64,000 bases of DNA, taken from positions 40,486,001 to 40,550,000 of the forward strand of contig OZ024755.1 of the NCBI GenBank assembly GCA_964016885.1, in the 5' to 3' direction. How positions within the stretch are numbered: the stretch's first letter is position 1; every line of letters starts with the position of its first letter. Made by a program: the position numbers and the translations under genes. Origin of the DNA: Eledone cirrhosa. Lineage: Eukaryota. The notes beneath the pieces are model-generated. The model made no database searches and had not been told where the DNA came from. It saw only the letters and a program-made list of their open reading frames with translations. Shown piece by piece: positions 23,813 through 26,770 of the stretch.

Positions 23813-25022
23813 GCGTACATACCGTAATTATATCTCTACCATGGTTTCATCCTTATTTTTAGACATCCAAATAATAGGAATGTCCTGAGACAAACTCAAA
23901 ATCAGACATCTAGTTTTTCAATCCGATCCCACCAAAAATAGATTCAAAAATGGCTAAGAATCGCTATGTGGCTGTGGTCAAGCCAGAAAGAATGTGATTG
24001 GTTGCTTACGGCGGGTAGGCTTGCTGCTAGAAAGCGCAGCCAAATATCGCCAAATTTAATCTCAACCTATCGGGAGATTATTAAATTGCAACATGTATAT
24101 ATCTATAACTTTATGTATATGTTAACCTATATATTTAATAATCTCCAGGTATGCATTTCTTCTAAGTTTAATTTTACACCTAATTATGTATGGTTGATGA
24201 TATATTTAGTCAGTTTCAATGGCTAAAAATCGCTATGTAGCTGTGTTCCATGCTCTGATCTTTTGATTTTAATTTATTAATTCTTCATATAGCTTAAAAG
24301 TGAACAGTTGCAACATATATATATCTTTAATTTTGTGTATATGATAACCTTTATATTTAATAATCTCCCAGTTGGTTGAAATTAAATTTGGCGATATATG
24401 GCTGCACTTTCTAGCAGCAAGCCTACCCGCCGTAAGCAACCAATCACACTCTTTCTCTCTGGCTGGAACACAGCTACATAGCGATTTTTAGCCATTTTTT
24501 AATCTAAATTTGGCGGGATCCGATTGAAAAACTAAATGTCTGATTTTGAGTTTATCCCCTGATGAAACTAACTCTGGAAATTCAAATTATTTGGCTATCC
24601 TAAATAAAGAAGAAACCATGGTAGGGATATAATTACGGTATGTGCACATTTCTTCTAAGTTTAATTTTACTACTAATTGTGTGTGGTTGATGATATATTT
24701 GGTCGAAGTCTGCATGCTGTCGAAATGTTCGATAAATAATGGAACGGGGCTGCCGCGAAGAGGCTACGATCGATTGTTTGTCAGAGATTTCCCCATAAGA
24801 AAATTTATTCTTAAAGCTTGCTAGATTTGATTTTGTATATGGTTAATTATGCTAATTAGAAGAAGAAATAGTATATATTTTAATATGTGATGATTCAAAA
24901 GACATGATTTATGATATAATGCGCTGATCTTTTGATTTTAATTTATTAATTCTTCATAGAGCTTAAAAGTGAACAGTTGCAACATATATATATCTTTAAT
25001 TTTATGTATATGATAACCTTTA
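23813..25022. mobile_element. ORF-less ~669-bp tandem HHR repeat, locus 1 (scrambled inverted 5' part plus 1.15 units)
   Basis: ctgatcttttgatttt recurs at 24255 and 24924. HHR H10 at 24553-24629 (+). Confidence 0.7.
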
Positions 25023-25567
25023 TATATATATACATATATATATATATATATATATATATATATATATATATATATATATATATATATATATATATAGGAA
25101 CGAGTAGGACCCCGACGGCTGAGCTCAAGCCGTCTCGACGGCTAATTGAATCCAGAATTAGCCGTCGAAACCGCTTGAGCTCAGCCGTCGGGGTCCTACT
25201 CGTTCCTATTACCCACTCTACTACCCTAAGTATTGAGTACTTTGGTGCGTTATGGTCCACCTGGTTCCTTACCACATTTCCTTCGTTATATACATATATA
25301 TATAGAGAGAGAGAGAGATAGATAGATAAATATACACGGGTGTGTATGATTGTGTATAGAAGATTATATTAATAAGAGGAATTCCAACTTTGTCTGATTT
25401 ACTCGTTTTATTTACAATCCTTTAAAATTTATAATGGTATTATAATGAAATAATAGTACTATTTCATTATAATACCATTATAAATTTTAAAGGATTGTAA
25501 ATAAAACGAGTAAATCAGACAAAGTTGGAATTCCTCTTATTAATATATATATATATATATATATATA

Positions 25568-26770
25568 TCATAAATCATGTCTTTAGAATCATCAGATAAT
25601 AAAATATATACTATTTCTTCTTCTGATTAGCATAATTAACCATATAAAAAATCAAACAAGCTATAAGAATAAATGCTCTTATGGGGAAATCTCGGACAAA
25701 TAACCGAACGTAGCCTCTTCGCGGCGGCCCCAATCTAGTATTTATACAACATTTCGACAGCATGTAGAAACTGACTAAATATACCATCAACCATACACAA
25801 TTAGTTGTAAAATTAAACTTAGAAGAAATGCGCACATACCGTAATTATATCTCTACCATGGTTTCTTCCTTATTTTGGACATCCAAATAATAGGAATGTC
25901 CTGAGCTAGGATTCATCAGGAGACGAACTCAAAATCAGACATCTAGTATTTCAATCTGATCCCGCTAAAATTAGATTCAAATATGGCTAAAAATCGCTAT
26001 GTGGCTGTGTTCAAGCCAGAGAGAAAGAATGTGATTGGTTGCTTACGGTGGGTAGGCTTGCTGTTAGAAAGCGCAGCCATATATGTTAACCTTTATATTT
26101 AATAATCTCCCAATAGGTTGAGATTAAATTTGGCGATATTTGGCTGCGCTTTCTAGCAGCAAGCCTACCCACCGTAAGCAACCAATCACATTCTTTCTCT
26201 CTGGCTTGAACACAGCCACAGCGATTTTTAGCCATTTTTTAATCTAATTTTGGCAGGATCGGATTGAAAAACTAGATGTCTGATTTTGAGTTTGTCTCCT
26301 GATGAATCCTAGCTCAGGACATTCCTATTATTTGGATGTCCAAAATAAGGAAGAAACCATGGTAGAGATATAATTACGGTAGGTGCGCATTTCTTCTAAG
26401 TTTAATTTTACAACTAATTGTGTATGGTTGATGGTATATTTAGTCAGTTTCTACATGCTGTCGAAATGTTGTATAAATACTAGACTGGGGCCGCCGCGAA
26501 GAGGCTACGTTCGGTTATTTGTCCGAGATTTCCCCATAAGAGCATTTATTCTTATAGCTTGTTCGGATTGATTTGTTATATGGTTAATTATGCTAATTAG
26601 AAGAAGAAATAGTATATATTTTATTATCTGATGAATCTAAAGACATGATTTATGATATAATGCTCTGATTTTTTAATTTATTAATTCTTCATAGAGCTTA
26701 AAAGTGAACAGTTGCAACATATATATATATCCATAACTTTATGTATATGTTAACCTTTATATTGTATAAA
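25568..26770. mobile_element. ORF-less ~664-bp tandem HHR repeat, locus 2 (inverted arm 25568-26080 plus a full unit)
   Basis: gttaacctttatatt recurs at 26085 and 26749. HHR H10 at 25848-25925 (-) and 26293-26370 (+). Both ends lie in (TA)n. Confidence 0.75.
26293..26370 (+). ncRNA. Hammerhead ribozyme family H10 with long stem II
   Basis: tgtctc CTGATGA atcct..ggacattcc..ggatgtcc..aggaa GAAA ccatgg TA gagata. The copy at 24553 has the compensatory stem I tatccc/gggata. Confidence 0.8.

Follow-up and report, generated by a model that had tools for sequence, protein, structure and literature searches.

A non-coding hammerhead unit of about 665 nt with the insertion footprint of a Penelope-like element in Eledone cirrhosa

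Introduction

The window analyzed in this study is a 64-kb stretch of Eledone cirrhosa DNA (contig OZ024755.1, assembly GCA_964016885.1; positions are counted from its first nucleotide). It is AT-rich and contains many microsatellites, numerous hammerhead-bearing repeats and two LINE-type ORFs. Its repeats are presumably comparable to those of octopus. A sequence-only reading described positions 23813-26770 as a tandem, retrozyme-like hammerhead element with a monomer of about 665 nt. This locus raises the question of how such a unit was copied into the genome, and whether it is a tandem retrozyme or an insertion made by the enzyme of another element.

Penelope-like elements (PLEs) are characterized by partial tandems, inverted 5' copies and one-sided tails (PMC8557442). 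The Hydra PLEs have RWK-like and DKT motifs, a CxCx5C linker, a C-terminal GIY-YIG, CxxC and CxH; they target (TA)n and carry hammerheads, and non-autonomous PLEs with pLTRs have already been described (PMC8557442). The G10.1-C11.1 pair is highly conserved in PLE hammerheads (PMC4209133). In the Poseidon element PAc, RT starts at two internal sites, the interval between which is the tail, and each strand of the target is cut and extended (PMC11167929). Animal retrozyme families are reported to range from 51 to 972 bp, with a fish average of 650, and have been argued to be non-autonomous PLE derivatives; two consecutive hammerhead units serve as the criterion for a retrozyme (bioRxiv 10.64898/2026.07.22.740005). 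In the available literature, the case for PLE mobilization of animal retrozymes has so far been made from hammerheads in common, co-occurrence and pLTR homology.

Results

Layout of the three insertions

The region consists of three separate insertions (A1, A2 and B; Table 1) of one ORF-less unit of about 665 nt and is not a tandem array. Self-alignment identified a head-to-head inverted arm in all three, and the center of the insertion is different in each. Neither long inverted arm, the one at 25564-26084 with its third hammerhead nor the one at 23812-24086, had been noted in the sequence-only reading. The two periods that it gave, 669 (24255/24924) and 664 (26085/26749), are both present. 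The first reflects 24250-24359, which recurs at 24919-25028 with 96% identity, and recurrence at the second is limited to 14 nt plus a 4-nt microhomology. Thus, each forward copy of A2 and B is a partial tandem, in which a shortened repeat of the unit's end lies ahead of the full unit (669 + 107 nt and 664 + 14 nt). The claim of a tandem element was not borne out. A distance of 1,740 nt, occupied in part by unrelated repeats (25094-25547), separates the two plus-strand hammerheads, none of the forward copies has two hammerheads one unit apart, and no consecutive units with complete hammerheads were found anywhere in the window. Such a locus cannot yield a 665-nt circle by double self-cleavage. 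Longer tandems outside the window are possible, as a contig of run X4, described below, indicates.

Table 1. Coordinates of the insertions, their parts and the two neighboring PLEs, in window positions.
Feature	Position	Strand	Remarks
A1 inverted arm	23812..24086	-	Hammerhead lacks 17 nt including CUGAUGA; outer end abuts a fragment of another hammerhead family (G)
A1 forward remnant	24086..24217	+	Tail-equivalent piece, then a gap of ~270 nt
A2 inverted arm, 33 nt	24218..24250	-	Identical to 24464-24496
A2 forward copy, 669-nt unit + 107-nt tail	24250..25025	+	Starts exactly at the short-end equivalent; ends in (TA)n
Type I hammerhead motif, A2	24553..24629	+	Weak stem II region (-3.5 kcal/mol), A·A at its base
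Predicted G·U-rich rod, A2	24637..24879	+	Sense z -6.2, antisense z -0.4
(TA)n at the 3' end of A2	25021..25096	.	
Unrelated insertions separating A2 and B	25094..25547	.	End stump of Hydra-type PLE-C (25094-~25292) and 183-nt palindrome (25365-25547)
(TA)n at the left end of B	25543..25568	.	
B inverted arm	25564..26084	-	97.3% identity with 26136-26659; stops at the short 3' end, in (TA)n
Third complete hammerhead motif, in the B inverted arm	25849..25924	-	From motif search
B forward copy, 664-nt unit + 14 nt	26085..26762	+	Ends at the long 3' end, followed by 7 nt and (TA)n
Small hairpin just past the long end of the upstream unit	26103..26126	+	Candidate reverse-transcription start signal; z -1.5, not significant
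Type I hammerhead motif, B	26293..26370	+	GUA at 26362-26364, predicted cut after 26364; 47-nt stem II region, A·A at its base; palindromic stem III
Predicted G·U-rich rod, B	26378..26620	+	Sense z -3.2, antisense z -1.7
B tail, 103 nt between short and long 3' end	26660..26762	+	
(TA)n at the 3' end of B	26765..27409	.	
PLE-C, broken RT + GIY-YIG Penelope-like element with Hydra motifs	47700..52019	-	Motif scan and end-structure comparison; candidate helper class only
PLE-F, second broken PLE related to PLE-C, DKT motif	52217..56334	+	End-structure comparison

The forward remnant of A1 is composed of two pieces in the self-alignment. Positions 24086-24146 match the tail junction and 24147-24217 match 26381-26451; the gap of about 270 nt is approximately the portion that the A1 inverted arm would pair with. 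A1 and A2 may represent one chimeric event or nested events. Identity is 90.6% between A2 and B, 95.6% between A1 and B and 90.0% between A1 and A2; the copies diverge by 3-10%, each with its own indels. A2 and B have the tail-to-body junction in common at this divergence, which indicates that the ~665-nt unit has spread as such.

The absence of a credible ORF was confirmed. In unit B, the ATG ORFs reach at most 46 aa (plus strand) and 49 aa (minus strand), and a 94-aa frame at 23942-24226 had no RT or GIY-YIG match in Pfam at E 0.01. The GC content of two units is 0.34 and 0.32. A relaxed blastn search of the unit against the rest of the window returned, among the matches listed, only matches to AT repeats, and tblastn of the unit with six frames of PLE-C and PLE-F gave nothing below E 2.

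Ends, tail and target

The unit has two 3' ends, a short end (26659) and a long end (26762 in B, 25025 in A2), which are 103-107 nt apart and each lead into (TA)n. The forward copies of A2 and B both end at CCTTTATAT, followed by (TA)n. In B the tail is one-sided; its left end is the equivalent of 26659, and its right end is 103 nt beyond. Three of the four outer ends are in (TA)n (the right end of A and both ends of B), and the left end of A adjoins another repeat. Both ends are intact in only one of the three insertions, since the A1 left end abuts a repeat other than (TA)n and the A2 arm measures only 33 nt. Target-site duplications are illegible within (TA)n.

Contigs from sequencing runs contain both ends. 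In run X1, 15 contigs diverge from the reference behind 26624, and their consensus continues through the short-end motif to AT repeats. In run X4, which carries a second organism label, a 276-nt contig covers the sequence upstream of the short end, the tail and the next unit. Opposite-strand joints among the contigs are an effect of the inverted copies within the reference and were excluded as junction evidence.

The starts of all three forward copies fall in the tail-equivalent segment, which makes up 16% of the unit. The start gives the unit plus 14 nt in B and the unit plus 107 nt in A2, and is about 47 nt ahead of the long end in A1. The head-to-head joints contain microhomologies of 4, 1 and 1 nt. 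In a diverged contig of run X1, the hairpin corresponding to 26103-26126 is TACTC/GAGTA, with two double changes and the loss of two outer pairs (compared by eye).

Hammerhead motif

A complete type I hammerhead motif, with intact core, stem I and stem III, was found in three of four copies, and the A1 copy lacks CUGAUGA. Stem III of the A2 and B hammerheads is ACCAUGGU, a palindrome, and the stem II region is 46-47 nt long. The motif is not a chance occurrence, since the descriptor matched only 5 and 9 of 2000 shuffles of each of two units; the palindromic hammerhead with GUA at 26362-26364 that had been proposed is present. An Rfam scan of the region identified neither a hammerhead nor another relevant family at the gathering threshold or at E<=10, and its miRNA matches had scores below gathering and are accounted for by palindromes. 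A putative short intron following the hammerhead (GT at 26379 onward) was considered and dropped; its AG is absent in A2.

Stem I is TGTCTC/GAGATA in one copy and TATCCC/GGGATA in the other, which represents one double change and one G·U to A-U change. The covariation is real, but argues only weakly for the selection on the fold that had been proposed from it. For copies 9.4% divergent, the probability that a compensatory double change arises by chance is 0.019 (6 pairs) or 0.053 (17 pairs), and the covarying pair occurs in the copy with the weakest stem II (folding energy of the stem II region -3.5 kcal/mol in A2 versus -14.3 in B). The length of stem II was described as unusual; the region is long, but ordinary in the window, where it is 54 nt in PLE-C and 36-37 nt in two other families. 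The stem is defective at its base. All three complete hammerheads have A·A at 10.1/11.1, the G10.1-C11.1 pair is absent, and a scan that demands closure of stem II at the core loses all three while retaining the other families of the window. The A1 copy has GGAU ahead of GAAA, which is complementary to AUCC of B and would pair with it; a closed 4-bp stem II may thus exist in another subfamily. An X4 contig with only four further differences retains the 17 nt deleted in the A1 hammerhead.

The hammerhead region alone folds no better than its shuffles (z -1.3 to +0.1 in five stretches), and the active fold is predicted to cost 2.7, 6.1 and 4.9 kcal/mol above the free fold. Stem III of the monomer has 2 bp and a tetraloop, and the dimer through the palindrome has a predicted energy of -11.2 kcal/mol. 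In a plus-strand transcript of B, all 78 hammerhead bases are predicted to pair with the inverted arm. The hammerhead is predicted to cleave poorly alone and to require a dimer formed through its palindromic stem III. The copies in the window are probably inactive and derived from tandem source loci elsewhere.

Structure of the sense-strand RNA

The circularized monomer folds better than its shuffles, with z -4.3 in B and -3.5 in A2, and none of 60 shuffles was as good. The antisense monomer gave z -1.3 and five control stretches gave z -1.1 to +1.5. The bulk of this signal comes from a G·U-rich rod of about 240 nt past the hammerhead, common to A2 and B; this predicted rod is what is new in the 665-nt unit. 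The rod of the B inverted arm has equal values on both strands (z -2.0 and -2.0).

Several measures of sequence variation were applied to the rod. Of the 85 pairs in the consensus, nine vary on one side, two on both sides, and four differ solely through unpaired cells; covariation among three related sequences was not above the shuffle control (79/500). The ratio of G·U to A·C is 14:1 and 24:7, which is marginal after correction for base composition (p 0.037 and 0.24). Thirteen rod variants were taken from 40 listed of 540 rows and come from mixed subfamilies. Three keep a pair, three break one, two could add one and five are unpaired; combined, they gave -69.3 versus -66.0 kcal/mol, and random sets gave -57.2 +/- 5.2. 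An RNA structure on the hammerhead strand is likely, not proven, from this modeling.

Penelope-like elements in the same window

PLE-C contains RWR, DKT, CxCx5C, GIY-YIG, CxxC and CxH in a motif scan, the full set of Hydra motifs given in PMC8557442. These motifs, its (TA)n target, its U3:A8 hammerhead and its Atlas look-alikes indicate a probable Hydra-clade PLE. DKT was the sole Hydra motif found in PLE-F, of which the N-terminal frames were scanned; the two elements are 39-57% identical in protein sequence. Their identity as PLEs is based on motifs and Atlas, not on Pfam, in which six frames of PLE-C and PLE-F had no RT or GIY-YIG match at E 0.01 and one weak, unrelated Ac81 match. In both elements the inverted arm stops at the short end and the forward copy continues to a point 80 (PLE-C) and 100 nt (PLE-F) later in (TA)n.

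PLE-C has a frameshift near the RT catalytic motif and a stop near the C-terminus. Its hammerhead has a U3:A8 core, a 54-nt stem II region and a palindromic stem III loop; its end stumps are found at 20715, 25094 and 56341, and it is extremely abundant in reads. PLE-F is more decayed; its pLTRs are 388 nt long, its hammerhead is canonical and its inverted arm is long.

Occurrence in sequencing runs and the literature

The ~665-nt family is present in independent sequencing runs, and none of the runs listed for it is RNA. Several variants occur in 20-55 contigs each, which indicates that the family is dispersed. The summed contig depth is higher in the 3' half of the unit than in the 5' half, a measure that, by the tool's own caution, is not copy number. 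Two sequence patterns had no match in metagenome contigs. A literature search found no paper on the ~665-nt family or on any non-autonomous partner of Hydra elements; the family may nonetheless be listed in Repbase and similar databases or in the supplements of PMC8557442.

Discussion

The region is best explained as three insertions of a non-coding hammerhead unit. This unit is probably a retrozyme-type, non-autonomous PLE that relies for its copying on the RT/GIY-YIG protein of another, autonomous PLE, probably of the Hydra clade. The end structure of the unit is that of PLE-C and PLE-F, for which reason it is most likely a parasite using a PLE enzyme. The inverted arms, the unit plus partial repeat, the two 3' ends, (TA)n at the intact ends and the lack of an ORF all agree with a non-autonomous PLE. 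Several observations stand against it. There is no sequence link to an autonomous element within the window, the tail of 103-107 nt is longer than the published 30-40 bp, and both ends are intact in a single insertion of the three.

Several known systems have parts of this anatomy. Like the putative non-autonomous Chlamys PLEs such as MRC1, the unit has a partial tandem, an inverted 5' copy, a tail at one end, a hammerhead near its end and no ORF, together with (TA)n as in Hydra; unlike the PLEs of PMC8557442, it has a tail of about 105 nt and, as far as the window was searched, no 3'-end similarity to an autonomous family. Its short end is 295 nt past the cut site, and five other families of the window reach AT repeats 33-50 nt past the hammerhead (169 nt in family J, 562 in K). 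With the PLE hammerheads of PMC4209133 it shares the CUGAUGA/GAAA core, a 6-bp helix I, a palindromic helix III predicted to be dimeric and pairs of opposite-strand motifs a few hundred bases apart. Its lack of G10.1-C11.1 and its stem II region, which is far longer and contains an internal loop, set it apart from them. The dimer through the palindromic stem III is an arrangement known, in the literature available, from PLEs and amphibians. PAc of the green anole also has two RT start sites that define a tail, an AT-rich target and extension of both strands (PMC11167929), and its two start sites explain the two 3' ends of the unit. PAc differs in being autonomous and of another clade, with a hammerhead that overlaps the ORF start.

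By analogy with PMC11167929, the PLE protein would nick both strands of a (TA)n tract. From each nicked end, a cDNA would be primed within the element RNA, at the long start site in one case and at the short one in the other, and the two cDNAs would join head to head over 1-4 nt of microhomology. The template would not be a linear monomer cut by the hammerhead, because A2 and B pass the cut site and extend beyond a single unit; it would instead be a multimer left uncut or a circle closed by re-ligation. In another family of the window (29491-30522) the inverted arm exceeds its forward copy in length, an outcome beyond simple snap-back copying. The forward starts within the tail-equivalent segment would fit a circle read just over once, and would fit equally an ordinary PLE partial tandem or a transcript starting there.

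How much of this requires a circular RNA is a matter of degree. The unit could be a classical non-LTR retrozyme of animals, with a 665-nt circular RNA as its circulating form. This would be compatible with a non-autonomous PLE and would add the circle as template, and we consider it possible but rather doubtful. The folding of the sense monomer, for which antisense and controls are weaker, favors it, as do the three starts in the tail-equivalent segment (about 0.004 if starts were uniform, a post hoc value). The unit also resembles animal non-LTR retrozymes (PMC7229834; PMC7761336; bioRxiv 10.64898/2026.07.22.740005) in its type I hammerhead, its GC content under 50%, its lack of coding capacity, its predicted monomer structure and its proposed dependence on PLEs. 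Its size is no obstacle; 665 nt exceeds the 150-450 bp of the 2020 retrozyme paper but is not exceptional among families of 51-972 bp in the 2026 preprint, so the proposal that it is larger than animal retrozymes was not upheld. However, hammerheads one unit apart are absent from the window, the 47-nt stem II region without G10.1-C11.1 fails a scan that other families pass, and the hammerhead of the B transcript is predicted to be sequestered entirely by the inverted arm. In addition, a unit plus a small part of the next is an ordinary PLE form too, hammerhead cleavage was dispensable for insertion in PMC11167929, and eight of nine Xenopus dimers assayed failed to cut in bioRxiv 10.64898/2026.07.22.740005. 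The term retrozyme-like is fair for the ORF-less, 32-34% GC unit with a type I motif and folding on the hammerhead strand only; by the criterion of two consecutive units, the locus is not an active retrozyme, though it resembles one in its workings, and it fits the tests for a PLE footprint. A stronger form would make the unit a ribozyme-made circular RNA of 665 nt that parasitizes Hydra-clade PLEs, its genomic copies being twin-primed footprints of the circle, with two fixed starts, a stop past one turn and a head-to-head join; the G·U-rich rod and the long-end hairpin would then be signals for the helper protein. We regard this form as unlikely.

The remaining explanations concern what kind of repeat was inserted. 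An autonomous PLE may have left the unit behind merely as its long end (pLTR) or through internal deletion, in which case the unit would not be a self-spreading family. PLE stumps of this sort, such as that of PLE-C at 25094-25292, are found throughout the window, and the excess of contig depth in the 3' half agrees with this. Both A2 and B, 9% apart, nevertheless have the order of tail, non-coding sequence and hammerhead, the tail-to-body junction recurs in A1 and in the contig of the second organism label, and a coding remnant was not found in the unit, which leaves this explanation quite improbable. Terminal inverted repeats had been named as grounds for a DNA transposon, and long ones are present; B has inverted repeats of 520 bp with (TA)n on either side, as a foldback or MITE-type transposon at TA with a hammerhead look-alike as passenger would have. 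They are instead PLE 5' inversions, so that the retrozyme-like reading was redirected rather than refuted. The inverted repeats of B stop short of the right end by the length of the 103-nt tail, the centers differ in all three insertions, and there is head-to-tail redundancy and the same anatomy in RT-bearing elements of the window. The variable centers and asymmetric ends largely refute such a transposon, which is very improbable. The chance of a locally rearranged satellite or an assembly artefact is likewise very small. The region is rich in microsatellites and none of the contigs listed spans it, but the copies differ by 3-10% with indels of their own and the family occurs in independent runs.

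In the non-autonomous PLE that we favor, an ORF-less hammerhead unit bears the insertion footprint of PLEs (inversion, two 3' ends and (TA)n) beside Hydra-type elements with the same footprint. It thereby supplies a defined RNA, and a class of proteins as candidates, with which trans-mobilization could be assayed. As it stands, the unit is one more repeat family of a known sort, and its copies in the window are probably dead. If a circle parasitizing Hydra PLEs were true, a retrozyme would be tied to a named PLE clade by mechanism, beyond co-occurrence.

Other repeats of the window

Two neighboring LINE-type ORFs (APE + RT; 835 and 1150 aa) are found at 32737-40675 on the minus strand, with a 626-aa frame lacking a Pfam match upstream of them. 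A hammerhead family of 467-469 nt at 18002-19414 and 29491-30522 has the same inversion and (TA)n ends, with an inverted arm longer than the forward copy at the latter site; it is probably the "first" element of the sequence-only reading. At least six more hammerhead families are present (3302-3361, 47449-47644, 4826-4891, 5194-5248, 12860-12930, 21213-21283, 31811-31890 and 63280-63330). Most reach (TA)n within 33-170 nt, and their density and diversity are unusual for 64 kb. A palindromic insertion in (TA)n at 28357-28899 has a tRNA-like center (Rfam tRNA, 36.2 bits, 28569-28633, minus strand) and may be a tRNA-bearing PLE-type element. A family of 183-nt near-perfect palindromes beside TA repeats (25365-25547, 20984-21166 and 28874-28985), in which no hammerhead was found, may represent a MITE or a PLE stump. 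A 514-nt composite of the PLE-C stump and this palindrome occurs twice, at 20673-21182 and 25052-25565, with 96% identity, and thus the block was duplicated or moved whole.
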